Assembly: GCA_028710985.1 (NCBI GenBank)
Contig: JAQTTB010000001.1
Span: 655,073 to 719,072 of the forward strand
Direction of reading: 5' to 3'
Source of the DNA: Patescibacteria group bacterium
GTDB lineage: Bacteria > Patescibacteriota > Patescibacteriia > JAHJFT01
DNA: 64,000 nucleotides
Shown: one piece after another, positions 14,472 to 47,882 of the stretch
Layout: the number at the start of each line of letters is the position of its first letter
Position numbering within the stretch: position 1 is the first letter of the stretch
Program-made: the position numbers and the translations under genes
Notes under the pieces: generated by a model
Told to the model about the DNA's origin: nothing
The model's database searches: none
What the model saw: only the letters and a program-made list of their open reading frames with translations

Positions 14472-14627
14472 GTCATCCTGAGTCCCGACATCCGCGAAGC
14501 GGAATGTCGGGGCGAAGGATCTCACAGTCTCGAGATGAGCGTCCACGGCGCCACCATGGTCATGGCGAGATGCGAGATCCTTCGCCCCTCACCCCTCGAC
14601 AAGCTCGAGGCTCGGGCTCAGGATGAC
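14472..14627. repeat. Inverted pair of GTCATCCTGAG-[hairpin]-CGAAGGATC nested repeat elements
   Basis: Copy a1 at 14472-14523 is on the plus strand and copy a2 at 14574-14627 is on the minus strand. Inner hairpins are tcccgacatccgc-gaag-gcggaatgtcggg and cctcgagcttgtcgagggg. Confidence 0.7.
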
Positions 14628-14650
14628 AATATTATGGATGTGTATGCGAT

Positions 14651-14688
14651 AAAAAAACCGGCCGTCAATCTTGCGATTGAACGGCCGA
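14651..14688 (-). terminator. Intrinsic terminator of the minus-strand GC-rich cassette
   Basis: On the minus strand, hairpin ccggccgttcaatcgcaagattgacggccgg followed by T7. Confidence 0.6.
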
Positions 14689-14704
14689 TGAGAGCGTTAT
14701 CGAT

Positions 14705-14851
14705 TTACGGGAGTGGCGGAAATCGTATGGCCGGTCCCGTTACCGATGCATCGATGGGAATTATGAACCAGAGGATGATCGGCAGAAAGAACATGATGAG
14801 AAATAATACTAGCAAGAGCGGGTAGTCGCGTGGTTTGTCGTTTGGTTGCAT
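14705..14851 (-). CDS. Small hydrophobic peptide (48 aa), translationally coupled downstream of the 14865-15719 gene
   Basis: Strong SD TAGGAGGAA 7 nt upstream of the ATG. The peptide MQPNDKPRDYPLLLVLFLIMFFLPIILWFII is transmembrane-like. It is followed by the terminator at 14651-14688. At 48 aa it is below the ORF-track cutoff. Confidence 0.35.
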   Translation of the reverse strand: MQPNDKPRDYPLLLVLFLIMFFLPIILWFIIPIDASVTGPAIRFPPLP

Positions 14852-14864
14852 CTGCTGCTTCCTC

Positions 14865-15719
14865 CTACTTCGCCCGGACCGCCACGTACCCGCGCGGTAT
14901 GAGCCAGCGCCGCGTCACGAGCTCGTAGTTCACGAGGCCGATGAGGCCGCCCGCGAGCGCGCCGATGATCGCCGAACCCGCGACGTACCCGGCCACCGAA
15001 CCGATGACCGCGTCGGTGAAGCAGAGCGCCCGCCGCTCCGAGTGGATGCGGACGAACACCTGCCAGCCGAAACGTCCGAGGAAGCGGACCAGAGCGACGG
15101 AACCGCGTCCGATCGCCATGATGGATCGTCCCATGAAGCGCAGAATCTCCACCATGGCTCTCGGCGTTCTCTTCATGAGCCACCACATGCCGCGGGGCAG
15201 GTGGTAGAAGAGGACGATGGGCGGGGCTAGACAGTATGCCGCAGTCCACGCGGTTTTTCGATGATGGTCGAGAATTTCGTCGCGTTTTGGTGCTTGGGCA
15301 CATCCGGTGGTATAGAATAACAGTATTACTGTACTGATGCACATGATTGTAGCACCAGTGACGATCTTGAGCACTTCGAACGCTCCTTGAAAAATTTCGA
15401 CCTTAGGTTCGAATATGTCTATCGCAATAAAGAAGATGATGGTCGTTGTTGCAAGATCCAGGAAGAAGCAGAAAAAAGCGACCAAACCCGCCGCAGTGGT
15501 TTTCCAGAAACGCCGATCCGGCCTCCATCCTCTGGCCGCCCGGTACGCCGCCGGGATGACGCCGATGACGCGCCGGAAATCGTAGGCCAGGTAGCCCACG
15601 AGTCCGCCGGTGATGAGCCCGACCCAGATGAGCCAGGGCTTGAGCTCCAGAGCGATGAGCGAGCCAATGAATGCGCCCACGCCACACGCGAACATGATTT
15701 TCCAGGATTCCTTCTTCAC
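14865..15719 (-). CDS. Hypothetical polytopic membrane protein in a GC-rich (~60%) segment
   Basis: 284 aa with several predicted transmembrane helices. GTG start preceded by a strong SD (AAGGAGG with a 6-nt spacer). The composition differs markedly from its neighbours. Confidence 0.55.
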   Translation of the reverse strand: MKKESWKIMFACGVGAFIGSLIALELKPWLIWVGLITGGLVGYLAYDFRRVIGVIPAAYRAARGWRPDRRFWKTTAAGLVAFFCFFLDLATTTIIFFIAIDIFEPKVEIFQGAFEVLKIVTGATIMCISTVILLFYTTGCAQAPKRDEILDHHRKTAWTAAYCLAPPIVLFYHLPRGMWWLMKRTPRAMVEILRFMGRSIMAIGRGSVALVRFLGRFGWQVFVRIHSERRALCFTDAVIGSVAGYVAGSAIIGALAGGLIGLVNYELVTRRWLIPRGYVAVRAK

Positions 15720-15823
15720 GACGAACCTCCTTTTTGGTTGTCAGAGAACAATCAGTCGGTTTCCCGACTTTTCATCACATTATAGTGGAAAAAGCCCATT
15801 TTGTCAAGCCATTCACTCTTATC

Positions 15824-15939
15824 GTCATTGCGAGCCCCGAGCTTGTCGAGGGGCGAAGCAATCCCGTTGCAGGCGCTTCAAAATAGGTACAGGATTGCTT
15901 CGGTCGTCCCGACTGCTGTCGGGACTCTCTCGCAATGAC
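15824..15939. repeat. Inverted pair of GTCATTGCGAG-[hairpin]-CGAAGCAATCC nested repeat elements
   Basis: Copy b1 at 15824-15864 is on the plus strand with inner hairpin ccccgagcttgtcgagggg. Copy b2 at 15892-15939 is on the minus strand with inner hairpin gtcccgacagcagtcgggac. The inner hairpins match those of the a1/a2 pair, with the flanks and cores swapped. Confidence 0.7.
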
Positions 15940-16008
15940 GATAAGAAAAGAAGAAGATAAAGCGTCGGGGCTCTACCCAAATTACCGATTTTTTGTTAAA
16001 ATCAACCC

Positions 16009-16710
16009 ATGAACCTCATGCAAATCTATCGCAACCTCTACCGTCACTTCGGCCCCCAGCATTGGTGGCCGGTTTCAGCTAAAAAGGGGGATAAGGTCTT
16101 TGAAATCTGCGTCGGCGCCATCCTGACCCAGAACACGAATTGGAAAAATGTTGAATTAGCCCTCGCCGGCCTCCGGAAGGCGCGCCTTCTGACCCCGTGC
16201 GCCATTGCCAAATCGCCGGCGCGAAAAATTGAGCGTCTGATCCGGCCGTCCGGGTATTTCCGCCAGAAAGCCAAAAAGCTCAAGATTTTTGCCAAATATA
16301 TCTGCGACAACTATCAGTCCAGCGCGAAAAAGTTTCTGCAAGGCAGTCTGGAAAAAAAGCGGCCCGAACTCCTGTCAATCTGGGGCATCGGACCCGAGAC
16401 GGTTGATTCCATGCTGTTGTATGCCGGAAAAAAGACGACATTCGTGATTGACGCCTACACGCGGCGTTTGTGCAAAGAGCTGGGCATTGAATTTAAAGAT
16501 TACGAAGAATATCGCGCGTATTTTCAAAAACGCCTTCGCCCGAACGTTGAATTGTATAATGAATTTCACGCTTTGATTGTCGCCTGGGGCAAGCTGTTGC
16601 GACAGAACCGTGGGCAAGCGGTCGTATTGCTCAAGATAAAAAAATGCCCGAGGCGGGTGCCAAGGGCTGGGAAAAGGAATAAAGGAGCTAGCGTACGAGA
16701 ACGTCTTTAA
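16009..16710 (+). CDS. HhH-GPD superfamily base-excision DNA repair protein (endonuclease III-like)
   Basis: Helix-hairpin-helix plus Gly/Pro-rich loop pattern (LLSIWGIGPETVDSMLLYA ... VIDAYTRR). 233 aa. Confidence 0.75.
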   Translation: MNLMQIYRNLYRHFGPQHWWPVSAKKGDKVFEICVGAILTQNTNWKNVELALAGLRKARLLTPCAIAKSPARKIERLIRPSGYFRQKAKKLKIFAKYICDNYQSSAKKFLQGSLEKKRPELLSIWGIGPETVDSMLLYAGKKTTFVIDAYTRRLCKELGIEFKDYEEYRAYFQKRLRPNVELYNEFHALIVAWGKLLRQNRGQAVVLLKIKKCPRRVPRAGKRNKGASVRERL

Positions 16711-17158
16711 CGAGCTTGGCGAGGAACGCATCGTCGATCTCGCCCGGATTTGGGCGCTGACGCATTGAGCCGAGGCGGACAATGTCAACGGTTCTTTCAG
16801 AGAGAACAATCGCACGAGTGAATGGAAAATCGTGCCTTAGCGTCCTCACGAATTCGGCAGCCGACTGCTCGGACGATAAGTGTTCGGATATTACCAGATC
16901 AACCGTTGAGATTATTTTTCCGTGCCTCTGATGGTTTGCGTAATCCTCGACAAAGCTGCCGGACATGTCAGCTGGCAAGAGTTCCTTTCCGAGCACCTGC
17001 TTTCCTTGTTCACGTAAAAACATAATGGCCTGGTTGGTGCTATCGGCGCGCAGAACCATGTGGCCGATCGATTCAAGACGTTGCTTCAGACTGATGCCAA
17101 ACGGTTTTTGTTCACTGACCACAAGGATCGTTGCATTGATCGTTGCTTCCCTGGGCAT
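16688..17158 (-). CDS. Receiver-like (pseudo-receiver) domain protein
   Basis: CheY-like topology, but the acidic pocket is SE instead of DD and the phospho-acceptor position reads VISE (Glu instead of Asp). Confidence 0.5.
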   Translation of the reverse strand: MPREATINATILVVSEQKPFGISLKQRLESIGHMVLRADSTNQAIMFLREQGKQVLGKELLPADMSGSFVEDYANHQRHGKIISTVDLVISEHLSSEQSAAEFVRTLRHDFPFTRAIVLSERTVDIVRLGSMRQRPNPGEIDDAFLAKLVKDVLVR

Positions 17159-17299
17159 ACTCCACCTCCTCCTTATTGTTAAAAAACCAAACTAATATTA
17201 TCATATTTCAAAACCCGGCAACAGGCGATTTATACACAAAAAAATCGTCCCGACCGATGGATCGAGACGACAGTATTGAGAGCATGGGCTGGAAGTGGA

Positions 17300-17665
17300 T
17301 CAGGAACGGGGGGATGACATCTGGAGCGCGGCATCGACGGCTTTCGTGAAAGCGTCGAAGTTGAGTGGCTTGGCGAGGTGCTGGGTCCGGTCGTCGGAGG
17401 GCAGTTTGTCGCTTCCTCCGGTCATGAGGATGAACGGCAGGTCGGGACACGTGGCGCGCACGCGCGCGAACAGCTGTTTGCCGTCCATGACCGGCATGTT
17501 CACATCCGAGATGATGAGCGCGGCCGTATCCTTCCAGACCTCGAGCGATCGCAGGGCCTCCTCACCGTTTTCGCACAACACTGTGAGGTTGCCCATGCGC
17601 TTTAAGATGCGCGAGATTGCGTTTCTGATTTCCTGGTCGTCATCCACGACAATGATCAGCGACAT
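17300..17665 (-). CDS. Single-domain response regulator (CheY-like receiver)
   Basis: Canonical receiver residues: VVDDD, ISDVNMP (phospho-acceptor Asp), LMTG and LAKP. 121 aa. Confidence 0.75.
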   Translation of the reverse strand: MSLIIVVDDDQEIRNAISRILKRMGNLTVLCENGEEALRSLEVWKDTAALIISDVNMPVMDGKQLFARVRATCPDLPFILMTGGSDKLPSDDRTQHLAKPLNFDAFTKAVDAALQMSSPRS

Positions 17666-17706
17666 ATGATTCTCCCTTCGTTGATATTAGAAATGCGCGA
17701 AAGATA

Positions 17707-20670
17707 ATGAATCGTACCATGAATAAGCCAATCTGTCAAGATTTGAATCCCGAACAGCGTAAGGCCGTCACCGTGACCGACGGCCCGATTTTGATTGTCG
17801 CCGGCGCTGGCACCGGCAAAACCATGGTTATTACGCGGAAAATATCCCATCTTATCACCGAAGGTTTTGCCCGTCCCGAGGAAATACTCGCCCTCACATT
17901 CACTGACAAAGCGGCCGGCGAAATGGAAGAGCGCGTGGACAAGCTTTTGCCGTACGGGTACTTGGATCTCTGGATTTCTACTTTCCATTCTTTTGCCGAG
18001 CGGGTTCTGAAAAATCATGCGTTAGAAATCGGACTTCCGAATTCATTTCGACTGCTTTCCCAGGTTGATTCCTGGCTCTTGGTGCGCCGGAATCTGGATA
18101 AATTTGACCTTGATTACTGGCAGCCGCGCGGCAATCCGACCAAGTTTATCCGCGCAATGATTGAGCATTTTTCCCGCGCCAAGGACGAGGATCTCTGGCC
18201 CGAAAGTTATCTTGAATATGCCGAGAGCCTAAAGCTCAATAAAGATTCGGATCAGGCCGCGGACCAGGAAGTGAAGCGCGTAAATGAACTTGCCAACGCC
18301 TATCATGTTTATCAAAAATTATTGCTGGATAACGACGCGCTTGATTTCGGCGATCTCATTAATTATACGCTCAAGCTTTTTCGCGAGCGGCCGCATATTC
18401 TGGAGCAATACCGCGCGCAATTTAAATATATTCTGGTGGATGAGTTTCAGGATACTAACTGGGCGCAGTATGAACTCATCAAACTGCTTGCCGCTCCGCG
18501 CAATAACCTGACCGTGGTGGGGGATGATGATCAGTCGATTTACAAATTTCGCGGTGCCTCGCTTTCAAACATTCTGCAGTTTAAAAAAGATTTTCCCGAA
18601 TCCAAAGAGGTGGTGCTTGTCAAAAATTATCGCACGCGCCAGAACATCTTGGATCTGGCTTACGAGTTTATTCAGCGCAACAATCCCAACCGCCTTGAAG
18701 CCCAGCTCAAAAATAAAAATTTAAAAAAGAAAATAAACAAAAAACTGGATGCCCAGTGTCCGGGCGAAGGCCGCGCCGAACATCTGCATTATAAAACCCT
18801 TGAACAGGAGGTGCGCGGCGTTGCCCAAACCATTGCCGAGCTCAAGGCCGGGGACAGTGGTTTGACCTGGGACGATTTTGCCGTGCTCGTTCGTTCAAAT
18901 GACGCGGCTGCTCCATTCTGCAATTATTTTGCCAAACAGGAAATCCCGCATCAGTTTCTGGCGCTCAAGGGCCTTTACACCCGCCCGGTGGTGCGCGACA
19001 TTTTGAGTTTTTTTAAATTACTTGATAATTATCATGAGAGTCCGGCGCTTTATCGCGTCATGTCTTTGCCGGTTTGGAAAATCAGCCAAGCGGATTTGAT
19101 TGAGATGGCCATGGAGGCAAAGCGCAGTTCGTCGTCTCTTTGGGAGGTTGTTAAACGCCACCAGGGCCTTAAGAATCTTTCTGCCGGCGCCCAGGAATCA
19201 CTGCCGCGCCTGATTACCCTGGTTGAGGGTGCAGCCGCGCTTACGCGGGATAAAAGCACGGGCATGGTATTTAAATATTTTTTGGAGCAAAGCGGCTTTT
19301 TGCATTGGCTTGACCATCTGCCCGAGCTTGAAAAGAACCAAAAGATCGGCTGGCTGGAGCAATTCTGGGAGAAAATTAAAAAATTCGAAACCGACAACGT
19401 TGAGTCGCGCCTCTCTGATTTTATGGCGCAGATTGAGTTTGAGCTTGAGGCCGGGGAAGAGGGTTCTTTGCGTTTTGAAGCCGAAGAGGGTCCGGAGATG
19501 GTCCGCATCATGACCATCCACGGCGCCAAGGGGCTGGAATTCAAATATGTTTTTATCGTCAATATGGTGGACCGACGTTTTCCGACCACCGAACGCTCCG
19601 AGGCCATTCCCGTGCCTGATCCACTGGTGAAGGAGATTCTGCCCGCCGGCCAGGACACGCACCTGGAAGAAGAGCGGCGTTTGTTTTACGTGGCCATCAC
19701 CCGCGCGAAAGACGGAGTGTTTTTCACTTCGGCCGATGATTACGGCGGAATTCGCAAAAAGAAAATCTCTCAATTTTTGTTTGAACTCGGCTATTCGGCC
19801 GATGCCAGGGCTGGGGCCGGCCGCCAGTCAAAACTTTCGATTGAAGTACCAGTTCCGGCGCCAAAGCACGAAAAGAAAATAGAATATCCCTTTCCACAAA
19901 AATTCAGCTTCACGCGGCTTGCCGCGTTCCGCACCTGCCCGTTGCAGTATAAATACGCGCATATTCTGAACATTCCGGTATTCGGCAAAGCGGTATTCAG
20001 CTTTGGAAAATCAATGCACGCCGCGCTGGAAAGATTTTTCCGCGAGTGGCTTGCCCAGGGTTCGCAGTCAACGCTTTTTGGCAAAACGTCAGTTAAAAAA
20101 GGCAGCCCCGGCCTGCCGCCTCTTGAAAAATTGCTGGAAATCTATGGCCAGGAATGGATCCCGGCGTGGTATGAAAACCGCGATGAGATGCGCGGGAACA
20201 AAGAAACCGGGCGCCGGGTTCTCAAAAAATACTGGGAAGAGCTGGCCAAGGATCCGCCAAAAACAATTGCCGTGGAGCAGACATTTAATGTCAAATTCGG
20301 CGATTATACTCTTTTTGGAAAAATCGATCGCGTTGACGAACTCGCAAACGGCAATCTGGCTCTGGTTGATTACAAGACCGGCAAAGCAAAGGACGAATTA
20401 AAGGCCGAGGATAAAGAGCAGCTGATCATTTATCAAATTGCCATGGAAGAACCGCGTCTCTTTAACCGCAAAGTAGAAAAATTGGTTTATTATTATCTCG
20501 AGAGCGGAAATCGGCAGGAGTTTGTGGCGAGCGAGAAAGACAAGGAGAGGGTTACGGCCGCTCTCATTGAGCGCATTGAAAAAATAAAAAACAGCGATTT
20601 TCCGCCGGCGCCGAGCGAGCTTTGCCGGCACTGCGACTTTAATTTTATCTGCGATTACCGAAAAATCTGA
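17707..20670 (+). CDS. UvrD/PcrA-family ATP-dependent DNA helicase fused to a C-terminal RecB/Cas4-like PD-(D/E)xK nuclease with a predicted 4Fe-4S cluster
   Basis: Walker A AGAGTGKT, DEFQDT motif II, and helicase motifs through MTIHGAKGLEF. The C-terminal nuclease domain has Cys in FRTCPLQY plus a CRHCDFNFIC triad. 987 aa. Confidence 0.8.
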   Translation: MNRTMNKPICQDLNPEQRKAVTVTDGPILIVAGAGTGKTMVITRKISHLITEGFARPEEILALTFTDKAAGEMEERVDKLLPYGYLDLWISTFHSFAERVLKNHALEIGLPNSFRLLSQVDSWLLVRRNLDKFDLDYWQPRGNPTKFIRAMIEHFSRAKDEDLWPESYLEYAESLKLNKDSDQAADQEVKRVNELANAYHVYQKLLLDNDALDFGDLINYTLKLFRERPHILEQYRAQFKYILVDEFQDTNWAQYELIKLLAAPRNNLTVVGDDDQSIYKFRGASLSNILQFKKDFPESKEVVLVKNYRTRQNILDLAYEFIQRNNPNRLEAQLKNKNLKKKINKKLDAQCPGEGRAEHLHYKTLEQEVRGVAQTIAELKAGDSGLTWDDFAVLVRSNDAAAPFCNYFAKQEIPHQFLALKGLYTRPVVRDILSFFKLLDNYHESPALYRVMSLPVWKISQADLIEMAMEAKRSSSSLWEVVKRHQGLKNLSAGAQESLPRLITLVEGAAALTRDKSTGMVFKYFLEQSGFLHWLDHLPELEKNQKIGWLEQFWEKIKKFETDNVESRLSDFMAQIEFELEAGEEGSLRFEAEEGPEMVRIMTIHGAKGLEFKYVFIVNMVDRRFPTTERSEAIPVPDPLVKEILPAGQDTHLEEERRLFYVAITRAKDGVFFTSADDYGGIRKKKISQFLFELGYSADARAGAGRQSKLSIEVPVPAPKHEKKIEYPFPQKFSFTRLAAFRTCPLQYKYAHILNIPVFGKAVFSFGKSMHAALERFFREWLAQGSQSTLFGKTSVKKGSPGLPPLEKLLEIYGQEWIPAWYENRDEMRGNKETGRRVLKKYWEELAKDPPKTIAVEQTFNVKFGDYTLFGKIDRVDELANGNLALVDYKTGKAKDELKAEDKEQLIIYQIAMEEPRLFNRKVEKLVYYYLESGNRQEFVASEKDKERVTAALIERIEKIKNSDFPPAPSELCRHCDFNFICDYRKI

Positions 20671-20671
20671 T

Positions 20672-20968
20672 ATGCTGATCCACATAAAAAAACTTTTAGA
20701 CGAGGCCGTGAAACGCGCCGGCATCACCCAGAGTGTCAACGCCGCGCGCGTGGTTGAAGAATTCAACCGTGTCTGCCGCGAGCTCTACGGCAAGTTAACC
20801 TGCGACGCGGTGGCTCACGTTTCGTTCCGCAACGGTATCGTGCGCGTTTCCTGCGGGCACGCGGTTGTCGCGCAGAACCTGCAATTCAATAAATCGCGGC
20901 TTATAAATGAAATTAATCGCGGTCTAAAAGCCAAAGCCGTTTCCGGCATAAAAATTACGATTGCCTGA
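20672..20968 (+). CDS. DUF721-family (DciA-like) small protein
   Basis: 98 aa matching the DUF721 pattern (AVAHVSFRNGIVRVSCGHAVVAQNLQF ... INRGL ... KITIA). Confidence 0.5.
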   Translation: MLIHIKKLLDEAVKRAGITQSVNAARVVEEFNRVCRELYGKLTCDAVAHVSFRNGIVRVSCGHAVVAQNLQFNKSRLINEINRGLKAKAVSGIKITIA

Positions 20969-21001
20969 TTCAGACATCCCGGGTCCCGACCTGTCGGGAC
21001 G

Positions 21002-21409
21002 ATGAATCTGTGTTATAATACCGGTATGACATTGCGTGCTTTTATTTTATTCATGCTTCTCGCCACCATAATTTGCTGGTCCGCTTTTTTGATAATAATT
21101 TTTAAAACAAATCCCTACGAAACCGGCGCCCTGGGATTTATTTTTTTCTATGCCAGCCTTTTCTTAAGCCTGATCGGCACGTTGACTGTCGCCGGCATAT
21201 TCGTCCGCATGATTATTCTGAAAAGAGATGATTTTATCTCGCGGCGGGTCGCTGCTTCGTTCCGCCAAGGGGCATTCTTAGCGGCCGTTGCGGTCGCCGG
21301 CCTGTACCTCATGAGCCGGGGCCTTTTAACTTGGTGGAATGTGCTGTTTTTTGTTGCCGGAGTGAGCCTTTTGGAGTTCTTTTTTATCTCAATAAAAAGG
21401 CTAAAATAA
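21002..21409 (+). CDS. Hypothetical membrane protein
   Basis: 135 aa with three to four hydrophobic helices. No family recognised. Confidence 0.4.
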   Translation: MNLCYNTGMTLRAFILFMLLATIICWSAFLIIIFKTNPYETGALGFIFFYASLFLSLIGTLTVAGIFVRMIILKRDDFISRRVAASFRQGAFLAAVAVAGLYLMSRGLLTWWNVLFFVAGVSLLEFFFISIKRLK

Positions 21410-21425
21410 GCCAAATTTTCATATC

Positions 21426-21454
21426 TTGTCAAAACAGGGTCTTCAAGATATAAT
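21426..21454 (+). promoter_or_regulatory. Sigma70-type promoter of mreBCD
   Basis: TTGTCA (21426-21431), 17-nt spacer, TATAAT (21449-21454). Confidence 0.6.
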
Positions 21455-32904: not shown

Positions 32905-34365
32905 ATGGCAAACGAAGAACAAGTCAGAATTGATAAGCTCCAAAAAATTCGCGAGCAGGGGATTGAACCCTATCCGTCGGCGGCCCCGAGGACCCATGCC
33001 ATAGCCGCGATCTTGGAGAATTTTTCAAAACTTGAAAATGATAAAGCCCAGGTGACGGCCGCCGGCCGCCTGCGCACCGTTCGCGGCCACGGCGGATTGA
33101 TTTTTGCGCATCTCGAGGACGCCACCGGCCGGATGCAGGTTGTTTTCAAAAAAGACGAACTCGGCGAAAAGAAACACAGGCTTTTTACCCAGCTTATCGA
33201 CCCGGCGGATTTTATTTCCGTGACCGGGCCGCTTTTTATAACGCAAAAAGGCGAGCAGTCGATTCTGGCAAAAGATTTCACCCTGATTTCCAAGGCTCTT
33301 CTGCCATTGCCGGAAAAATGGCACGGCCTTCAGGATATTGAAAAAAGATACCGCCAGCGCTATCTTGATCTGCTTTCCAACCCCGAAGTCCGGGAAATTT
33401 TTCAAAAAAGATGCCTCGTCATAAAAACCCTGCGCCGCCTTCTTGACGAACAGGGCTTTATTGAAGTGGAAACCCCCATGCTCCAGGCCATTCCCGGCGG
33501 CGCGACCGCCCGTCCGTTCGTGACGCATCATCACGCCCTGGATCAGGACATGTATCTGCGCATCGCGCCCGAACTCTTTCTCAAACGCCTGATTATCGGC
33601 GGCTATGAAAAAGTTTATGAGCTCGGCCGGCAATTCCGCAACGAGGGCATAGACTGGCAGCACAATCCCGAATTCACCAGCCTTGAATTTTATTGGGCGT
33701 ATAAAAATTATGAAGATCTCATGGAATTTACCGAGCAGTTAATTTCCAAAGTCGTAAAAGAAGTGAACGGTTCAATGAAAATCATGTACCGCGAAGCGGA
33801 GATCGATTTTTCTCCGCCGTGGCCGCGCAAAAAGTTTCATGACGCCATTCTGGAAAATTCCAGCCTGGATATTGATAAACTAAACGATAAAGATCTCGTC
33901 AAAGAGATGAAAAATTTGAAAATTGATTCCGACTACAAGGCCGGCCGCGGAAAATTGCTTGATGATTTATATAAAGATACGGTCCGCGCCAAGATTGTCC
34001 AGCCGACAATTATTTATGACTATCCGGTTGAAATGGAACCGCTCGCTAAAAAATGTCAGGACGATCCGAATTATGTTCAGAGATTCCAGCCCATTGTCTG
34101 CGGCATGGAGCTTCTCAAAGCATATTCCGAGCTAAATGACCCCGGGGATCAGCTGGAACGCTTCCGTGAGCAGCAGAAAATGCGCGAGAAAGGGGATGAA
34201 GAGGCGCAGATGATTGACCAGGATTTTATTGAAGCCCTGAAGCACGGCCTGCCGCCAACCGCCGGCTGGGGCCTGGGCGTTGATCGATTCGTCGCGATTT
34301 TGACCAATCAGCCGAATTTAAAGGATGTGATACTGTTTCCAACGCTAAAAGCCGAGAAGGAATAG
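32905..34365 (+). CDS. lysS: Lysyl-tRNA synthetase (class II)
   Basis: N-terminal OB anticodon-binding domain and class II motifs 1-3 (FIEVETPMLQ, YELGRQFRNEG, GLGVDRF). Confidence 0.9.
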   Translation: MANEEQVRIDKLQKIREQGIEPYPSAAPRTHAIAAILENFSKLENDKAQVTAAGRLRTVRGHGGLIFAHLEDATGRMQVVFKKDELGEKKHRLFTQLIDPADFISVTGPLFITQKGEQSILAKDFTLISKALLPLPEKWHGLQDIEKRYRQRYLDLLSNPEVREIFQKRCLVIKTLRRLLDEQGFIEVETPMLQAIPGGATARPFVTHHHALDQDMYLRIAPELFLKRLIIGGYEKVYELGRQFRNEGIDWQHNPEFTSLEFYWAYKNYEDLMEFTEQLISKVVKEVNGSMKIMYREAEIDFSPPWPRKKFHDAILENSSLDIDKLNDKDLVKEMKNLKIDSDYKAGRGKLLDDLYKDTVRAKIVQPTIIYDYPVEMEPLAKKCQDDPNYVQRFQPIVCGMELLKAYSELNDPGDQLERFREQQKMREKGDEEAQMIDQDFIEALKHGLPPTAGWGLGVDRFVAILTNQPNLKDVILFPTLKAEKE

Positions 34366-34422
34366 CAAATATCGGTGAATCAGTGAATTGGTGAATCGGT
34401 TTATAAAACCATTATATTTCCC

Positions 34423-34812
34423 ATGAGCCATTCAATGAAATTTAGTGATCTGGAAATATGGAAAATCGGATTCAAGTCGCTATCGGAAATCTACGCGTTA
34501 ATTAAAAACTTTCCTAAATTTGAACAGTTCGCGTTAGCTAGCCAGTCAATTAGATCAGCAAATTCGATCATTGCCAATATCGCTGAAGCTCATGGTAGAT
34601 ATTTTTTCAACGACAAGATACGGATATTGTATATCGCACGCGCCGAGGCCGAAGAGGTTCAGAGTCATTTAATGGTAGCTTGCTCGCAAGAATATATTTC
34701 AAAAGAAATTGCCAACCAGTTAATTGAAAGATATGAAGTTCTTATTAAAAAAATCAATTCATATATTTCATACCTGTCGCAGAAACGTCCTGACTCACCG
34801 ATTAACCGATAA
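34423..34812 (+). CDS. Four-helix-bundle protein of the 23S rRNA intervening-sequence protein family
   Basis: 129 aa with the same family pattern as 3668-4036 (IWKIGFKSLSEIY ... NIAEAHGRY ... AEAEEVQSHL). It is flanked by inverted repeats of the ggtgaatcggtt family at 34371-34402 and 34797-34823. Confidence 0.7.
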   Translation: MSHSMKFSDLEIWKIGFKSLSEIYALIKNFPKFEQFALASQSIRSANSIIANIAEAHGRYFFNDKIRILYIARAEAEEVQSHLMVACSQEYISKEIANQLIERYEVLIKKINSYISYLSQKRPDSPINR

Positions 34813-35235: not shown

Positions 35236-35247
35236 ATCATCTCATTC

Positions 35248-35272
35248 GTCATTCCCGCGAAGGCGGGAATCC
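35248..35272. repeat. GTCATTCCCGCGAAGGCGGGAATCC palindromic mini-repeat (single copy)
   Basis: Perfect 8-bp stem ATTCCCGC/GCGGGAAT with a GAAG loop. It is the core form of the repeat family also seen at 14472, 15824 and 47806. Confidence 0.7.
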
Positions 35273-35314
35273 AGGTGCAATAATCGGGCAGAAAGTATTT
35301 AAAAATAAAATATT

Positions 35315-36580: not shown

Positions 36581-36599
36581 ATTCATTCTTTATTGTCAT

Positions 36600-36675
36600 T
36601 CAAGGCGGGGCTAGAGAGCCCCGCCTATTATTAATAAATTTTTTATAAATAGGTGGGGCTCTCCAGCCCCACCGA
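36600..36675. repeat. Inverted pair of GC-rich hairpins (ggcggggctagagagccccgcc and ggtggggctctccagccccacc)
   Basis: The two hairpins are near reverse complements, separated by an AT-rich spacer, at the left edge of the GC-rich paralog cassette. Confidence 0.55.
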
Positions 36676-36773
36676 AAATAAAAAAATCCGGCCCAGCAGG
36701 GGTCGGATGTGCGGTTGGGGAAAGAACATGGGGGCGTCTATCGTTCGGCCAAGCCTCAGCCGGCCGAATCGCG

Positions 36774-37670: not shown

Positions 37671-37873
37671 GGGCTCCTCCTTGCCTGGCCGACCGTTGAG
37701 CGACTGCCCAAAGGTCCCGACACTGCGGGACAGGCCAAGACATTACAATCTAGCAATAAACTTGATGTTTGTCAATATATGGGTGGGGTGCTAATAAACC
37801 TCGCCGCGTGGTAAATAAAAAAATCCGGCCCAAGGGGGTCGGAAGTGTGGAAGGGAGAAGGAGCGATGATTAG

Positions 37874-40913: not shown

Positions 40914-40926
40914 ATTTGAAAACAAT

Positions 40927-42198: not shown

Positions 42199-43697
42199 GA
42201 TTCAAGTTTAGAGATCGCTTCCTGGATGCGCTGCAATGAAATTTTTTTGCCCAGTATTTCGGCGATGTTAAACGGCGGTGGTGATTTTTCAAGTCCAGAG
42301 AGAGCTACCCTCATCGGCCAAAGCACAGGGCCGTTTTGGAGATTGTTTTGCATAATCCAATCTTTGATTGTCTGCTCCAGGTTCTCGGCAATAAATTCGT
42401 CTTCGGGTATGGGTTCCATTAGAGCGAGCAGACCGCGCAGATTTTCAGCGGCTTCGAGCGGGGTCATTTTTTTCCAAACGAGCAGTTCTTTATCATAGTG
42501 TAGCGATTTTTTGAAGAAAAGCCCAGAATCATCGGCAATGTCTTTGAGCGTATTCGCGCGTTCGCGCATGAGCATGACAATCTTCGCGAGCCAGTCAAGT
42601 TTTTCTTCGGCCTCCGGGGCGTCAATCAGCTGATTTGCGATAAAATACGGGACGCACAGGCGCGTCAGTTCCATGGGGTCTTTTCCGCGGATATAGTGGT
42701 TATTGAGCCAGTTGAGTTTTTCCACGTTGAATACCGCGCCGGATTTATTGATGTTCCGGAGATCAAATCGTTTCATAAGTTCAATCCGCGGATATATTTC
42801 GCGCTCTGAACTCGGATTCCAGCCGAGCAGAGCCACGAAGTTTATGATTGCCTCGGGCAGATAGCCGTTTTTTGCATAATCGCTCACCGCCACGTCTCCC
42901 TGGCGCTTGGAGAGCTTGCTACGGTCGGGATTTAACAGCAGCGGCAGATGCGCGAATTGCGGCGGTTTCCAGCCGAATGCCTTGTACAGAAGAATATGTT
43001 TGGGCGTGGACGGCATCCACTCATCCCCGCGGATCACGTGCGTGATGCGCATGAGATAATCATCAATCACATTGGCCAGATGATAGGTCGGAAAGCCGTC
43101 GGATTTTATAAGTACCTGATCATCAAGTTCGGAGTTTTTAAATTCAATGTCGCCGTGGATAATGTCATTAAATTTAGTCGTCCCCTGCTCCGGCACGCGG
43201 AGACGGATGACGTGCGGAATATTTTGTTTCAATTTTGCATCCACGTCCGCGGCCTTGAGGTCGCGGCAAAGTCCGTCATATCTCGGCGGCTGTTTTTTTT
43301 GGATTTGATCTTCGCGCATTGCCCGTAAACGGTCTTCAGTGCAAAAGCAATAATATGCCCTGCCTTGGGCAATCAGATCCTGGGCATGCCTTTTATATAA
43401 ATCAAGGCGTTCCGACTGGCGATAAGGCCCGAATTTGCCGGTTTGATCAACCTCGCCGTCACGAAGCACCATTCCTTCGTCAGGCATGAGATCGGCCCAC
43501 CCAAGGCTCTCCAAAATATTTTTTTCGCCGCCGGCCACGGTCCGCGTCTGATCCGTATCCTCAATTCTGAGAATAAACGTTCCCCCGCTGCGCCGCGCGA
43601 AAAGCCAGTTATAAAGCGCGGTGCGCAGGCTGCCAATATGAAGAAGACCGGTCGGACTGGGCGCGAATCTGACCCTTACTTTTTTCTTGAAAAACAT
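42195..43697 (-). CDS. gltX: Glutamyl-tRNA synthetase
   Basis: FAPSPTGLLHIG (HIGH) and KLSKR (KMSKS) motifs. 500 aa. Confidence 0.9.
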   Translation of the reverse strand: MFFKKKVRVRFAPSPTGLLHIGSLRTALYNWLFARRSGGTFILRIEDTDQTRTVAGGEKNILESLGWADLMPDEGMVLRDGEVDQTGKFGPYRQSERLDLYKRHAQDLIAQGRAYYCFCTEDRLRAMREDQIQKKQPPRYDGLCRDLKAADVDAKLKQNIPHVIRLRVPEQGTTKFNDIIHGDIEFKNSELDDQVLIKSDGFPTYHLANVIDDYLMRITHVIRGDEWMPSTPKHILLYKAFGWKPPQFAHLPLLLNPDRSKLSKRQGDVAVSDYAKNGYLPEAIINFVALLGWNPSSEREIYPRIELMKRFDLRNINKSGAVFNVEKLNWLNNHYIRGKDPMELTRLCVPYFIANQLIDAPEAEEKLDWLAKIVMLMRERANTLKDIADDSGLFFKKSLHYDKELLVWKKMTPLEAAENLRGLLALMEPIPEDEFIAENLEQTIKDWIMQNNLQNGPVLWPMRVALSGLEKSPPPFNIAEILGKKISLQRIQEAISKLES

Positions 43698-44440
43698 AAT
43701 CTTGTTTTTATAACTAAATAGGTGAAGATAATTATGGCTTTATAAATTCGCGGCAGACGGATCATGGGCTCTTGGGCGAGCCGCCAGAGCCATTCCAGGC
43801 CGGTTTTGCGCATTATTTTCGGCGCTCTTCTTATTCTACCGCAAATAAAGTCAAAAGTCCCGCCCACGCCGATTGCGAGCTTAACCGACGGCAGGCGTGC
43901 CTTAAAATCGTTAATGAATTTTTCCTGCCACGGGTGCCCCCGTCCGATTATTAGTATACTCGGATTTGCGGATGCGATTTTTTCAATCAGCCCAGTCTCA
44001 ATCTCCCACTCACCTGCAAATTTCGCGAGCCGTCCGCCCGACTCGGCTCCGCAGATGTTAATTCCCGGAAAAGTGTCTTTGATAATTTCGGCAGTTCGTT
44101 TGGCGATTCCCGGCAGTCCGCCGAGCAAAAAAACCGGCTGATTTCGTTTTTTCGCGAGTTCCAAAATGTCCCAAACCAGATCCGCGCCGGAAACGCGGTT
44201 GATTTTGCCAAGTCCCAGAATCGTGGCGGCCATAATTATGCCGAATCCGTCGCTCACCGCAATATCCGCGCGGTTTAAAATATCGCGGAATTCGGTGTCG
44301 TTCTGCGCGTCAACAATCATTTCCGGATTCGGAGTGACGATATAGTGAAATCCAGTGGAAGTCAAAAAGCTTTCCGTCTTGCTGATCAGCGCGTCGCGCT
44401 CGAGATTATCAAGATTAATGCCAAGAATATTAATTTTCAT
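43676..44440 (-). CDS. WecB/TagA/CpsF-family glycosyltransferase
   Basis: 254 aa with a family pattern resembling N-acetylmannosaminyltransferase. Confidence 0.75.
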   Translation of the reverse strand: MKINILGINLDNLERDALISKTESFLTSTGFHYIVTPNPEMIVDAQNDTEFRDILNRADIAVSDGFGIIMAATILGLGKINRVSGADLVWDILELAKKRNQPVFLLGGLPGIAKRTAEIIKDTFPGINICGAESGGRLAKFAGEWEIETGLIEKIASANPSILIIGRGHPWQEKFINDFKARLPSVKLAIGVGGTFDFICGRIRRAPKIMRKTGLEWLWRLAQEPMIRLPRIYKAIIIFTYLVIKTRLCFSRKK

Positions 44441-44984
44441 GTTTCAGTTCAAAACTTTTTATAATCGTGTATTCCGCGCCGTCTGCCTCAAGATTGCTCT
44501 GCATTAGTTCAAAGCTCCGGACCGTCCACGCGAGCCCGGGAACTTCCGGCAGATCCAAATTGAGCCGTGTGCCGGAATCTTTGTTGCGTGCCACGGTCAG
44601 GTGAGTCCGCCACGGCCGGCGGTCAATTTCAAATCCGGCCCGTTCAAGCTGGCGGCCGATTTCGGTTTGTATGTCGGCAAGAGAATTTTCAGTTCCAAGG
44701 CCGATGAATACAACGCGCGGGAATTCAAGATCCGGAAACCCGCCCCAATCCCCTGTCTGTATTTTTGAGCCGCTAAATTGACCGGCGGCATGTTCGCCGA
44801 TCTTGATAATTCTTTCAATGTCATCCTGCTCCAGTTCGCCTAAAAAATGCAGAGTCAGGTGCACGGATTGCGGCTTAACCCAGCGCAGACCGGGAAAATC
44901 ATTGTCTTCGCGCGCCCTTGTCAGAATCGGAGCCAATTCACGCTTGATTTCATCCGGCAAATTAATGGCCAAAAATACTCTCAT
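44430..44984 (-). CDS. thpR: RNA 2',3'-cyclic phosphodiesterase (2H family, LigT/ThpR)
   Basis: Two HxT/S motifs (HLTLHF and HLTVAR). The start was placed at MRVFLAINLP. Confidence 0.7.
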   Translation of the reverse strand: MRVFLAINLPDEIKRELAPILTRAREDNDFPGLRWVKPQSVHLTLHFLGELEQDDIERIIKIGEHAAGQFSGSKIQTGDWGGFPDLEFPRVVFIGLGTENSLADIQTEIGRQLERAGFEIDRRPWRTHLTVARNKDSGTRLNLDLPEVPGLAWTVRSFELMQSNLEADGAEYTIIKSFELKHEN

Positions 44985-45014
44985 ACAGGCATATTTTAGC
45001 AAAAATAAACGGGT

Positions 45015-45043
45015 TTGACAATATAAAAAGTTTATATTATAGT
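45015..45043 (+). promoter_or_regulatory. Sigma70-type promoter of clpB
   Basis: TTGACA (45015-45020), 17-nt spacer, TATAGT (45038-45043). Confidence 0.55.
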
Positions 45044-45047
45044 GGAT

Positions 45048-45074
45048 TTAGCACTCTAACGCTCTAACTGCTAA
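45048..45074 (+). promoter_or_regulatory. CIRCE-like inverted repeat (candidate HrcA operator) overlapping the clpB transcription start
   Basis: TTAGCACTC-N9-AACTGCTAA against the CIRCE consensus TTAGCACTC-N9-GAGTGCTAA. The left half is perfect and the right half matches 6 of 9. Confidence 0.45.
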
Positions 45075-45098
45075 AAATTAACCATCTATTTTTTTGCT

Positions 45099-47747
45099 AT
45101 GTTACCGCAAAATTTTACTACCAAGTCGCAGGAAGCCCTGCAAAATGCCCACATGCTCGCCTCCGAAGCCGGCCAGGTTCAGCTTGAACCGCTTCATCTT
45201 CTCCTCGCTCTCATTGAGCAGGAAGAAGGCGTGGTTGTGAATGTCTTGAAAAAACTGAATATCAGCCCGGATGAGATAAAAGCACTGGTTCGTTCCGAGC
45301 TCTCGGCAATGCCCCGCGTTCAGTCTCCGGAGCGCATGGCCGGCGGCGTTGGCCAGATCTATGTCTCTCCTGGCCTTTTTAAGGTTATAAAACAGGCCGA
45401 AAAAGAAGCCAAGGATTTTAAAGATGACTATATTTCCACCGAACATATTTTGCTCGGCCTCATTCAGGTGAAAAGCGAGGCCCAGGAAATCCTGGCTGAA
45501 TTTGGGGTTAACTATGACCAGGTTCTCAAGGCCCTGAAAGACGTGCGCGGCACGCAAAAGGTTGATTCGCCCGAACCCGAATCGCGATACCAGACAATTG
45601 AAAAATACTGCGTCAATCTGACCCAGATGGCGCGCCAGGAAAAGCTGGACCCAATTGTCGGCCGCGATCAGGAAATCCGGCGCGTTATGCAGGTATTGTC
45701 CCGCCGGACCAAGAATAATCCGGTCCTGATCGGCGAAGCCGGAACCGGCAAAACCGCGATTGTTGAGGGCCTGGCGCAAAGAATTATCGCCGGCGATGTT
45801 CCGGAAAGCCTTAAAAATAAAGAAATCGTTTCATTGGACCTCGGGTCGCTTGTCGCGGGCACCAAATTCCGCGGCGAGTTTGAAGACCGCCTCAAAGCGC
45901 TGATTAAAGAAGTCAAGGATTCAGAAGGAAAAATTATTTTATTCATGGATGAACTCCATACCCTGGTCGGCGCCGGCACTTCGGAGGGCAGCTCGCTTGA
46001 TGCGTCAAATATGCTCAAGCCCTCGCTCGCCCGCGGCGAACTCAAGGCAATCGGCGCGACCACTCTCCGTGAATATCAAAAGCACATTGAAAAGGACCAG
46101 GCCCTGGAACGCCGCTTCCAGCCGGTATTTGTGGCCGAACCTTCGGTTGATGACACCATCGCCATTCTCCGCGGCATCAAGGAAAAATACGAAGTCCACC
46201 ACGGCGTGCGCATCACCGACCCGGCGATTATCGCGGCCGCGGAATTATCATCGCGCTATATTACCGACCGGTTTTTACCGGACAAGGCCGTTGATTTGAT
46301 CGATGAAGCCGCTTCGGCCCTGCGCATGGATATTGATTCCATGCCCGAAGAGCTGGATAAGTCAAAACGCCAGATTGTGAAGCTGGAAATCGAAAAACGC
46401 GCCCTTTCCAAAGAAGACGACAAGCGCTCCAAGGCGCGCCTCAAGGAACTTGAAAAAGATCTCGCCGAACTCAAGGAAAAATCATCCGAATTCGAGCTTG
46501 CCTGGAAATCGGAAAAAGATGTTATCCAGAATTTTCGTGAAATTAAGAAAAAGCTGGATGTTTTAAAGCAGGAATCCGATATCAAGGAAAGAAAGGGCGA
46601 CCTTGAGGCCGTGGCCAAGATTCGCTATGCTGAAATCCCCCGCCTGCAGAAAGAAGCCAAGGAACAGGAAAAGCGCCTGCGCGACCTTCAAAAAAACCGC
46701 GGCCTGCTCAAAGAGGAAGTCACGGAAGAAGACATTGCCACGGTTGTTTCGCGCTGGACCGGCATTCCGGTCGCCAAAATGCTGGAAACCGAAGCCGGCA
46801 AGCTGGTGCGGCTCGAGGATGAGCTCGGCAAGCGCGTCATCGGCCAGCGGGAAGCCATTGTTGCCGTTTCAAACGCCATCCGCCGTTCGCGCGCCGGCAT
46901 CGCCGAAGAGCAGCGCCCGATCGGTTCGTTTATCTTTCTCGGGCCGACCGGCGTGGGCAAAACCGAGCTCGCCCGGGCCTTGGCCGAATTTCTATTTAAC
47001 GATTCCGACGCCCTGATCCGCATGGATATGTCCGAATACATGGAAAAGCACAGCATCTCCAAAATGATTGGTTCGCCGCCGGGCTATGTGGGTTATGACG
47101 AAGGCGGCCAGCTTACCGACACAATCCGCCGCCGCCCTTACTCGGTTATTCTTTTTGACGAAATCGAAAAAGCCCACCCGGATGTGTTTAATATGCTTTT
47201 GCAGATTTTGGAAGACGGCCGTCTGACCGATGCCAAGGGGCGGGTCGCGAATTTCAAAAACACGATTATCATCATGACATCAAACGTGGGCTCGGAGTTT
47301 ATCCTCAATATTTCAACCAAGAAAGGCCGCATTGGTTTTGAAGACGCCGAAGAGCGCACCGAATCGTCCGACTACGCGGAAATGCGTACGCGCGTCATGG
47401 AAATGCTTAAAGAAAATTTCAAGCCCGAGTTCCTGAACCGCGTTGACGATATCATCATCTTCCATTCCCTCTCCCCCGCCGATATCGCGGCGATTGTTGA
47501 GCTGCAGATTGAAAATGTGCGCCGGCGCATCGCCAAAAAGAATATCAATATAAAAATGACCGAAAAGGTAAAAAAACACCTGTCCGAAAAGGGTTACGAT
47601 CCGTCCTTCGGCGCGCGTCCCCTGAAGCGCCTCATCCAGACCGAAATCCTCAATCCCCTGGCCATGGCCATTATCCAGGGCAAGGTTAAAGAGGATGAAT
47701 CCGTGGTTATTGATCTGGACCGGAGCGGCAAAGTGGTGTTCAAATAA
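45099..47747 (+). CDS. clpB: Chaperone ClpB (two AAA+ domains with a middle coiled-coil)
   Basis: Two Walker A motifs (GEAGTGKT and GPTGVGKT), a coiled-coil M-domain, and ~880 aa. Confidence 0.9.
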
Positions 47748-47805
47748 ATCTTTTCCATTACCGAAACGTTAATCAGATAGGCATGGCGGTTGAATTCAAG
47801 CTACT

Positions 47806-47882
47806 GGATTCCCGCTTTCGCGGGAATGACGATGAGCGGTGTATTCCGTTTTTTTCGTCATTCCCGCGCAGGCGGGAATCCA
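47806..47882. repeat. Inverted pair of GTCATTCCCGCG(N)AGCGGGAATCC mini-repeats
   Basis: Copy d1 at 47806-47830 is on the minus strand. Copy d2 at 47857-47882 is on the plus strand. They are separated by a short spacer ending in T7. Confidence 0.7.

Follow-up and report, generated by a model that had tools for sequence, protein, structure and literature searches.

Seven intergenic hairpins of a Patescibacteria genome are copies of the NTS/Ssn-related-motif repeat family, with variant stems and nested tips

The seven GC-rich hairpins of a 64-kb stretch of DNA analysed here (the window), which belongs to the 0.74-Mb genome of a Patescibacteria MAG, are copies of the NTS/Ssn-related-motif (SRM) family of bacterial DNA repeats. 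This family is widespread and has already been described recently; the earlier note on this DNA had left it without a name. New in this case are the variant stems and nested tips within a known repeat family; the host genome is a tiny one of the candidate phyla radiation, and the nested tips, present in four of the seven copies, are unusual. We consider it likely, with good confidence, that the combined reading holds, that is, membership in the SRM superfamily together with gene-less miniatures, recognition by Ssn and a recombination-prone site.

The GIY-YIG nuclease SsnA recognises NTS as its target in single-stranded DNA (Chenal 2025, Nat Commun, PMC11893778). Ssn is a single-domain GIY-YIG enzyme of ∼95 aa whose binding to the folded hairpin requires single-stranded DNA; it acts on neither duplex DNA nor RNA, and cleaves a few nucleotides 5′ of GTC (PMC11893778). 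The GTC located 5′ of the palindrome is critical for cleavage and the C located 3′ of it for binding, mutations of Y6, Y17 and E64 of SsnA abolish nuclease activity, and in Neisseria Ssn activity lowers the integration of transforming DNA that carries NTS (PMC11893778). The main text of that paper does not mention Patescibacteria or use the word 'doublet', and paired repeat units are not described there.

All seven copies listed in the earlier note are present at the positions it gave and are intergenic, as it had claimed, and the frame it saw in them turns out to be a single oriented one, common to 7 of 7: GTC, a palindrome starting with AT, then C, with (C/T)GTC + AT-started palindrome + C as the unit formula. 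Three stem classes occur in the window, namely ATTCCCGCG (canonical NTS, which contains dRS3; type 1), ATTGC (type 2) and ATCCT (type 3). Units of the ATTGC and ATCCT classes continue after the stem with GAG, a variable tip and CGAAG, and in copies A–D this tip is a second, lineage-specific hairpin. Copies A (14472–14521, + strand) and B (14576–14627, − strand) have ATCCT stems and form the left and right halves of a heads-outward doublet at a distance of 54 nt; both run from GTCATCCTGAG to GCGAAGGATC, enclosing the nested tip TCCCGACAT-CCGCGAAGCGG-AATGTCGGG in A and CCCGAGCCTCGAGCTTGTCGAGGGGTGAGGG in B, with CCTCGA-GCTTG-TCGAGG as the tip of the latter. Copies C (15824–15863, + strand) and D (15893–15939, − strand) have ATTGC stems and are likewise the left and right halves of a heads-outward doublet, with a C–D distance of 29 nt that matches the usual doublet spacing elsewhere. 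Each starts with GTCATTGCGAG, followed by CCCCGAGCTTGTCGAGGG and GCGAAGCAATC in C (tip CCCCGAGCTTGTCGAGGGG) and by AGAGTCCCGACAGCAGTCGGGACGAC and CGAAGCAATC in D (tip GTCCCGAC-AGCA-GTCGGGAC). The inner hairpins are TCCCGAC...GTCGGGA in A and D and GAGCTTGTCGAG in B and C, so the swapping of inner types between outer frames that had been proposed is real. The gene caller placed a 96-aa ORF with no Pfam hit on record across copy B; this ORF is probably spurious.

The other three copies are of type 1 and lie among core housekeeping genes. Copy E (35247–35274, + strand; CGTCATTCCCGCGAAGGCGGGAATCCAG) is found 12 nt past a cytidylyltransferase-like gene and 40 nt ahead of serS, copy F (47804–47831, − strand; CGTCATTCCCGCGAAAGCGGGAATCCAG) downstream of clpB, and copy G at 47856–47883 (+ strand). 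F and G face each other heads-inward with 26 nt between the heads, unlike A/B and C/D, and in this respect the earlier account is corrected. With the threshold of ≤1 mismatch taken from PMC11893778, the 28-nt NTS consensus CGTCATTCCCGCGMAVGCGGGAATCYRG is matched exactly by E and F and with 1 mismatch, at the last consensus base, by G, while A–D do not match; the dRS3 definition ATTCCC-N8-GGGAAT likewise covers E, F and G (ATTCCC GCGMAVGC GGGAAT) and not A–D. The published degenerate SRM pattern, HGTCWYN(0-2)YYVSBRHN(0-5)WNVSBRGN(0-2)RNCYNB (PMC11893778), gives 3 matches in the window (E, F and G) versus 0.16 expected from shuffles, and misses A–D as well as canonical 25–33-nt ATTGC, ATCCT and ATTCT units. 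The pattern is narrower than the family, because in 80 ssn loci it finds only 10 sites where GTC-hairpin-C units number 293. The repeat family is present across bacterial phyla, and elsewhere, too, its tips are generally variable or nested; together with the shared frame, the occurrence in many phyla supports the modular REP-like or MITE-like family that had been suggested.

The heads GTCATTGCGAG and GTCATCCTGAG, both 11-mers, occur exactly twice each in the window and always with the matching 3′ end, and copies B and C have 26 nt in common at 92%. A loose detector (GTC, a 5-nt AT arm, the arm's complement and C) finds exactly the seven copies, a result that is weak alone, as the same detector scores 1.8 ± 1.3 hits on shuffles and up to 7. 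The earlier note had offered RNA folding as a check; folding as single-stranded DNA gives the hairpin expected in each of the seven copies, and five of them fold better than shuffles (A, −16.5 kcal/mol, z −4.3; D, z −2.97; E, −3.7; F, −4.2; G, −4.0; overall z −3.0 to −4.3), and B (z −1.15) and C (z −1.39) fold no better. The outer stems of A–D are just 5 bp.

In other genomes, each of the three stem classes is found flanking SsnA homologues. For type 2, ATTGC-dominated hairpins lie ≤400 bp from ssn in 76 of 80 metagenomic SsnA-homologue loci and on both sides of the gene in 63 of the 80, and their density is 5.7 per kb ≤300 bp from ssn versus 0.23 per kb beyond. Around ssn genes 97% of ATTGC..GCAAT palindromes are bounded by GTC and, on the opposite side, by C, and one locus (L077) has the clean layout of hairpin, ssn and inverted hairpin. 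Type 1 hairpins border the ssn genes of N. gonorrhoeae (L356) and of four viral contigs (L334, L336, L344 and L345). Type 3 is represented by one locus only, a Planktothrix plasmid (L354) in which ATCCT/ATTCT doublets stand on both sides of a GIY-YIG gene; no GIY-YIG gene was found near type 3 repeats in 120 viral loci. The flanked proteins have Pfam PF01541 on record and share 39–62% identity with the N. gonorrhoeae protein (E 5e–17 to 7e–41), and in their alignment (A1) Y7, Y18 and E65 do not vary and are spaced like Y6, Y17 and E64 of SsnA. Elsewhere the partner gene encodes a single-stranded-DNA nuclease of the GIY-YIG type rather than a transposase.

The doublet is also the usual form elsewhere, where the heads point outward in 95 of 111 neighbouring pairs (median gap 26 nt), and this bears out the earlier claim that the copies are mostly inverted pairs (A/B, C/D and F/G). 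Halves are unequal in 59 of 73 doublets elsewhere, as in A/B and C/D. The commonest gene layouts are hairpin-ssn-inverted hairpin (14 loci) and doublet-ssn-doublet (13 loci), and the ends of heads-outward doublets are arranged as in the 'hairpin - ssn - hairpin' gene unit. By analogy with MITEs, REPINs and their parent elements, the doublets may be gene-less miniature derivatives of the hairpin-ssn-hairpin unit that have spread between the genes of this Patescibacteria lineage. Putative Ssn enzymes, one or several, encoded elsewhere in the genome, would recognise the copies when DNA becomes single-stranded during uptake, replication or repair. Several points count against this explanation, which is the best one: the published pattern misses A–D, the outer stems of these copies are short and B and C fold no better than shuffles, type 3 is tied to ssn at a single locus, no ssn gene was found in the window, and a homologue of the bracketed membrane gene described below lacks the hairpins. 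Three stem classes would also need several paralogues or cross-specific enzymes, and to our knowledge nobody has demonstrated how these repeats multiply.

Between doublets A/B and C/D lies a gene for a 284-aa membrane protein (14865–15719, − strand). Its GC content is 59.5% (63–67% at the ends) versus 48% for the window, so the observation that the pairs bracket a GC-rich membrane gene holds. The protein family is real (1152 representatives at E ≤ 1e–3, no Pfam hit), and a sigma-70-like promoter (12/12) is found at 15807–15779; such hairpins are missing around a homologue from another metagenome. The segment 13552–16008, between tatD and an HhH-GPD gene, occupies the position at which relatives L125 and L127 carry their F1Fo ATP synthase operon; the window has two doublets around the GC-rich membrane gene there. 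Within this segment, a 274-aa ORF (13563–14387) is 26.5% identical (E 3e–16) to a 231-aa ORF without a Pfam hit that L127 carries between its genes for the alpha and gamma subunits of ATP synthase. The earlier note had advised comparison with relatives lacking the copies: the syntenic relatives (∼65% protein identity, ∼54 kb compared) have none of the hairpins, and at the site of copy E one of them (L123) has a 20-bp spacer versus 79 bp, copy E included, in the window, in line with an insertion within this lineage. An independent assembly contig begins at the first GTC base of copy E. The copies might mark a recombination-prone site, at which a foreign GC-rich membrane gene would have replaced ATP synthase genes.

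Of the alternatives, the most serious, though clearly less probable than the combined reading, is that the copies are orphan relics, Ssn-type by descent and inert here with no cognate nuclease, brought by horizontal DNA or left by a past burst. Regex and HMM searches found no ssn or GIY-YIG gene in the 64-kb window and a recovered extension of ∼5 kb to the left, three different stem classes are met together in a very small genome, and A/B and C/D adjoin a GC-rich, probably foreign gene; viral contigs, which carry both NTS-associated ssn and numerous type 3 copies, would offer an import route. Against relics, E and F are still perfect to the 28-nt consensus and the GTC...C frame is kept in all seven copies, as would be expected if they arose recently or are under constraint, and E, F and G stand outside foreign DNA. 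Transcription terminators, attenuators or 3′-end stabilisers, RNA-level roles that have been proposed for some REP elements, seem improbable here. The intergenic position of every copy, E shortly after a stop codon and A/B between convergent genes would fit such roles, and the hairpins would form in RNA too. However, no T-run follows any copy, contrary to the terminator role offered earlier as a possibility, and a terminator scan calls none of them, though the genome does use classic stem and T-run terminators nearby (14423–14445, which the scan calls, and 36593–36684); two divergent promoters have C/D on their upstream side, the hairpins match no Rfam family, and the characterised enzyme is inactive on RNA.

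Mobile elements of other kinds appear still less plausible. DDE-transposase MITEs, or sites used for integration by recombinases of the IS110 type or of filamentous phages, as dRS3 is in Neisseria, are very unlikely to explain the data. Doublets A/B and C/D do form extended inverted repeats (TATTGTCAT...ATGACAATA and CTTATCGTCAT...ATGACGATAAG), and like MITEs (Correia elements) the window doublets are intergenic, gene-less miniatures that would retain nothing but the ends of a unit with a gene. Yet the bases just outside A/B and C/D contain no target-site duplication, no transposase (a DDE enzyme included) or integrase is encoded in the window, and no prophage adjoins the copies. With dRS3 the window shares the motif in E, F and G, and with dRS3 and the Neisseria intergenic mosaic elements (NIMEs) the position of repeats next to genes that differ between relatives; presumably the mosaic of conserved hairpin ends and variable inner blocks also resembles NIMEs. 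The host, however, is not Neisseria, and only three dRS3-type copies are in view. REP/REPIN elements mobilised by RAYT, an IS200/IS605-like Y1 transposase, are the least credible of all, although there are likenesses: short imperfect palindromes in many intergenic copies, an asymmetric conserved head, REPIN-like inverted doublets that are apparently the replicating unit, and a partner gene that is itself repeat-flanked. But the head is GTC rather than GTAG/GTGG, the repeat-flanked gene elsewhere is a GIY-YIG nuclease (the 76 of 80 loci above) rather than a Y1 transposase, and a Pfam scan of 30 window ORFs revealed no Y1 transposase or RAYT domain; a further difference is that the two hairpins of a unit are on opposite strands (heads outward). 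NTS/SRM repeats with SsnA (PMC11893778) remain the closest known system, sharing with the window copies a multi-copy, intergenic, hairpin-forming character and the GTC-palindrome-C frame. The window differs from it by the ATTGC/ATCCT stems, GAG...CGAAG collar and nested lineage-specific tips of A–D, by the lack of an ssn gene in view and by its Patescibacterium host.

The inner hairpins are also met on their own. A related hairpin that had been reported at 37708–37730 does exist as a degenerate relative (37714–37731, GTCCCGACACTGCGGGAC, fold z −1.8), but it has just a 6-bp imperfect stem. A perfect free-standing inner hairpin, missed before, is found at 20983–21000 (GTCCCGAC-CT-GTCGGGAC); none of the other 349 loci fetched contains it. 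It repeats the module seen at the tip of copy D and stops 1 nt short of an ATG, and this module has 2 matches in the window versus 0.01 expected.

Reading of the sequence together with repeat and pattern searches recovered all seven of the hairpin repeats described in the earlier note, and all seven lie between long ORFs, in agreement with its statement that every copy is intergenic. Copies A (14472-14521, +) and B (14576-14627, -) read GTCATCCTGAG...CGAAGGATC, copies C (15824-15863, +) and D (15893-15939, -) read GTCATTGCGAG...CGAAGCAATC, and copies E (35247-35274, +), F (47804-47831, -) and G (47856-47883, +) read CGTCATTCCCGCG-NNN-GCGGGAATCC. One frame and orientation is common to all of them: (C/T)GTC, then a palindrome beginning with AT, then C. 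The stem is ATTCCCGCG/CGCGGGAAT in E, F and G (type 1), ATTGC/GCAAT in C and D (type 2) and ATCCT/AGGAT in A and B (type 3), and in the window types 2 and 3 continue from their short stem into GAG, a tip and CGAAG. The copies were said to stand mostly in inverted pairs, and so they do: A/B and C/D are heads-outward doublets, with GTCAT outside and gaps of 54 and 29 nt, and F/G is a heads-inward pair whose heads are separated by 26 nt. As single-stranded DNA all seven give the hairpin expected from their predicted stem complementarity, and the folds of A, D, E, F and G are clearly better than those of shuffled sequences (z -3.0 to -4.3), while those of B and C are not. A loose hairpin detector, tried as a statistic, discriminates too little by itself.

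A full-text literature search with the type 1 core pointed to a paper by Chenal et al. (2025, PMC11893778). It gives the 28-nt Neisseria Transformation Sequence (NTS) as CGTCATTCCCGCGMAVGCGGGAATCYRG, with the older dRS3 repeat inside it, and describes SsnA as a 94-aa GIY-YIG protein that binds the NTS as single-stranded DNA only and cleaves a few nucleotides upstream of it, 5' of the GTC head. Cutting depends most on the three bases before the palindrome and binding on the C after it, transformation is lower if the donor DNA has the NTS and SsnA is present, and related hairpins, the Ssn-related motifs (SRMs), flank ssn genes in many phyla (PMC11893778). The NTS consensus is exact in E and F and has one mismatch in G, and the published degenerate SRM pattern has three matches in the window (E, F and G), where shuffles give an expectation of 0.16. 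The canonical copies represent an element already described. The pattern matches neither copies A-D nor types 2 and 3 in their plain 25-33-nt form. Three things go beyond the main text of the paper: a host among the Patescibacteria, stems of the ATTGC and ATCCT classes that the published pattern does not cover, and the heterodimeric doublet with nested tips. Literature text queries with the type 2 and type 3 heads returned unrelated primer matches only, Rfam gave nothing at the gathering threshold for the whole window, and a tRNA and tmRNA scan of the whole window found none.

The link between the other stem classes and ssn genes comes from loci elsewhere. A scan of one genome per species with the type 2 frame gave at least 120 loci, and the hosts among the 80 matches listed include Alpha-, Gamma- and Deltaproteobacteria, Bacteroidota, Chloroflexota, Cyanobacteria, Zixibacteria, Armatimonadota, Helicobacter, Spirochaetes and others. 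At one of these loci (L077) a 96-aa GIY-YIG gene is flanked on either side by a type 2 unit whose head points outward. An ssn gene lies within 8 kb in only 2 of the 120 GTDB loci picked by the type 2 pattern, as expected for a family of many copies and few genes; the association test had to start from the gene side. Proteins like that of L077 form a tight family of ~95 aa and share 48-55% identity with the protein of the N. gonorrhoeae locus that NTS copies flank. Their invariant Y7, Y18 and E65 have the spacing of Y6, Y17 and E64 in SsnA, the mutation of which abolished nuclease activity (PMC11893778). When 80 metagenomic loci were found with the protein alignment, GTC-hairpin-C units lay within 400 bp of the gene in 76 of them and on both sides in 63, with an overwhelmingly ATTGC stem. 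Across these loci there are 5.7 units per kb up to 300 bp from the ssn gene and 0.23 per kb farther away, and 97% of the ATTGC palindromes around ssn genes are bordered by GTC and, at the opposite end, by C. Type 1 units flank a sister clade of the Ssn protein in viral contigs. For type 3 the link to the gene came from the protein side only, through a single locus on a Planktothrix plasmid, where a further family member has ATCCT/ATTCT doublets on both sides and exact type 3 units nearby; 120 viral loci with type 3 repeats had no GIY-YIG gene and no recurrent neighbour gene, and two plasmid loci matching type 3 had no GIY-YIG gene either. Since types 1, 2 and 3 were each found flanking ssn homologues, all three stem classes are Ssn-flanking motifs. 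The published SRM pattern is narrower than the family.

The ssn-like Planktothrix gene (L354, Planktothrix agardhii plasmid NZ_LR882964.1; 559-750, 2248-2427, 3698-4502) is placed between drmA, a DISARM gene, and a restriction-modification gene of the MmeI type, and so inside a defence island; the MmeI coding sequence, as annotated, contains several type 3 doublets. Some viral ssn homologues have further hairpin classes on their flanks (L337 1371-1475 and 1811-1890; L333 and L335 ~1280-1990), among them GTCATCCCAGCGAAAGCTGGGACCCA doublets and units with a ...CCGGGACCCAG end, and the stems of these classes resemble the inner TCCCGAC hairpin of the window. Many ssn homologues in the protein database sit on contigs of just 0.5-2 kb.

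The doublet is the usual form of these repeats. Of 111 neighbouring units at type 2 loci, 95 have their heads outward (median gap 26 nt), and the halves are unequal in 59 of 73 such doublets (typically 26 + 32 nt); for type 3 in viral contigs the heads-outward arrangement is seen in 74 of 129 neighbouring pairs. Two layouts are commonest around ssn, the gene between a hairpin and an inverted hairpin in 14 loci and the gene between two doublets in 13, so that a heads-outward doublet corresponds to the ends of a gene unit without the gene. The tip varies: CGNAG and a duplicated core, GAG-CGNAG-CGA, are its common forms, and there are also long inserts specific to a lineage, one of them common to several Bradyrhizobium loci, and the tips in the window are of this kind. 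Both the nesting of a second hairpin inside the outer stem and the swapping of inner types between outer frames, reported earlier, are real: A and D contain TCCCGAC...GTCGGGA, and B and C contain GAGCTTGTCGAG, with 92% between B and C over 26 nt (repeat pair I19). Among the 351 loci fetched, ~2.5 Mb in total, the TCCCGAC hairpin has no occurrence outside the window. The earlier note lacks a perfect free-standing copy of the inner hairpin (GTCCCGAC) at 20983-21000; the related hairpin that it placed near 37708-37730 is present (37714-37731), only as a weak relative.

The nearest relatives available are syntenic, with ~65% protein identity, and have no copy in ~54 kb. At the serS site the spacer is 20 bp in the relatives versus 79 bp with copy E in the window. 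Relative to these available genomes the copies are lineage-specific insertions. The empty site matching copy E in one relative (L123 9975-9995) has GTCATTATAATC just before serS, which reads GTC, the palindrome ATTATAAT and C: perhaps a chance match, perhaps a decayed site or a proto-site. In an independent assembly, a contig from this organism (L351, Logan SRR22315509_439014) has as its first base the first GTC base of copy E (window 35248), as would be expected of an assembly graph interrupted by a multi-copy repeat.

A complete F1Fo ATP synthase operon of ~7 kb separates tatD from the HhH-GPD gene in both relatives compared at this site (L125 10853-18026; L127 1661-10169). The operon is not at the corresponding window interval (13552-16008), and no F1 alpha- or beta-subunit P-loop signature was found anywhere in the 64-kb window; the interval contains a 274-aa ORF, doublet A/B, a 48-aa ORF, a 284-aa membrane-protein gene and doublet C/D. 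The 274-aa ORF is 26.5% identical (E 3e-16) to a 231-aa L127 ORF that has no Pfam match and is located between the genes for the alpha and gamma subunits of ATP synthase. The two doublets do bracket a GC-rich membrane gene, as had been proposed, with 59.5% GC in the 284-aa gene versus 48% in the window. The gene is real; its family has 1152 representatives, and in the window it has a perfect sigma-70-like promoter. As a regular cargo of such doublets it was rejected, with a homologue (48% identity, n = 1, 1.4-kb contig) that has no hairpins around it.

A terminator role, raised in the earlier note as something to check, is not supported; no T-run follows any copy and the terminator scan calls none of them, although true terminators close by are called by the same scan. 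Between the convergent serS and a 298-aa ORF, two back-to-back GC-rich stem-loops with A/T-rich tails (36593-36684) look like a bidirectional terminator pair, so the genome uses classic terminators. For REP elements with a RAYT partner both the head of the copies and the partner gene are wrong, a classical MITE would leave target-site duplications and none were seen around the doublets, and a phage or IS110 target site has no such element near it. Among 30 window ORFs scanned against Pfam there was no ssn, transposase, RAYT or integrase. The most serious alternative concerns function and not identity: the copies may be inert relics in a genome without the enzyme. Regex and HMM searches in six frames found no Ssn or GIY-YIG ORF in the window, in ~5 kb to its left (L209) or in the relatives L123, L125 and L127; the critical GTC and C are kept in all seven copies.

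One or more Ssn enzymes are presumably encoded elsewhere in this Patescibacteria genome, and the doublets are probably miniature derivatives of the ssn gene unit that may influence recombination or uptake of single-stranded DNA and may mark junctions of gene replacement. The layout of the doublet, ssn, doublet unit is mirrored in the window, but with a putative cargo gene instead of the nuclease. We regard it as unlikely that the hairpin doublets are boundaries of gene-cassette exchange in the 0.74-Mb genome and, relatedly, that the small GTCCCGAC hairpin is a mobile module entering the loops of other hairpin repeats. What suggests such exchange is the pair of heterodimeric doublets, of different stem classes and with swapped lineage-specific tips, around a probably foreign GC-rich membrane gene that stands exactly where relatives have ATP synthase genes.

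The family of Ssn-motif repeats is now placed in the candidate phyla radiation, whose members, with their minimal genomes, are generally considered to rely on taking up DNA, and where a system restricting single-stranded DNA or shaping recombination would be relevant. The published pattern misses at least two abundant classes, ATTGC and ATCCT/ATTCT, which are seen on the flanks of clear SsnA homologues and commonly in contigs of bacteria and viruses, so published motif counts are probably underestimates. Each missed class would be a candidate new specificity of single-stranded DNA cutting, which the field wants as a tool, and the match of the unequal heads-outward doublet to the hairpin, ssn, hairpin unit offers a concrete and testable picture of how the repeats spread. 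For annotation, the repeats create spurious small ORFs and assembly breaks. A public gene call of 96 aa across copy B (14535-14825, +), with no Pfam match on record, is probably spurious. Read-through of the repeats yields peptides such as LDSRFRGND and SFPRRRES, strings that are often met in hypothetical proteins of the databases.

Several other features of the region were observed. Two copies of a 121-nt sequence, 90% identical and inverted relative to each other, lie 10.7 kb apart (49780-49900 and 60628-60748). Each is immediately upstream of a gene, in one case a LigB/Memo-like gene at 49908 and in the other a 123-aa ORF (60627-60256) that by sequence alone resembles ribosomal protein L13. 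Within the unit there are a terminator-like stem with a T-run, two more small hairpins and a promoter-like stretch, and Rfam has no convincing match for it (isrJ, E 0.52). Short runs of an 8-nt unit (ATCGGTGA / ATCAGTGA / ATCGGTTA) stand in two distant intergenic places, 8739-8826, where they are arranged inverted (D1, I12), and 34363-34407. Immediately to the left of the window (L209 1-5882) the organism has a defence-like cluster of an N6/N4 DNA methyltransferase, a CAP12-PCTIR TIR-domain protein and a DEAD/ResIII helicase. The small ORFs at 3668-4036 and 34423-34812 have similar, four-helix-bundle-like sequences; the former matches the 23S rRNA intervening-sequence protein and bAvd families in Pfam, and the latter, which appears related by sequence resemblance, is directly followed by the cytidylyltransferase-like gene located before copy E.
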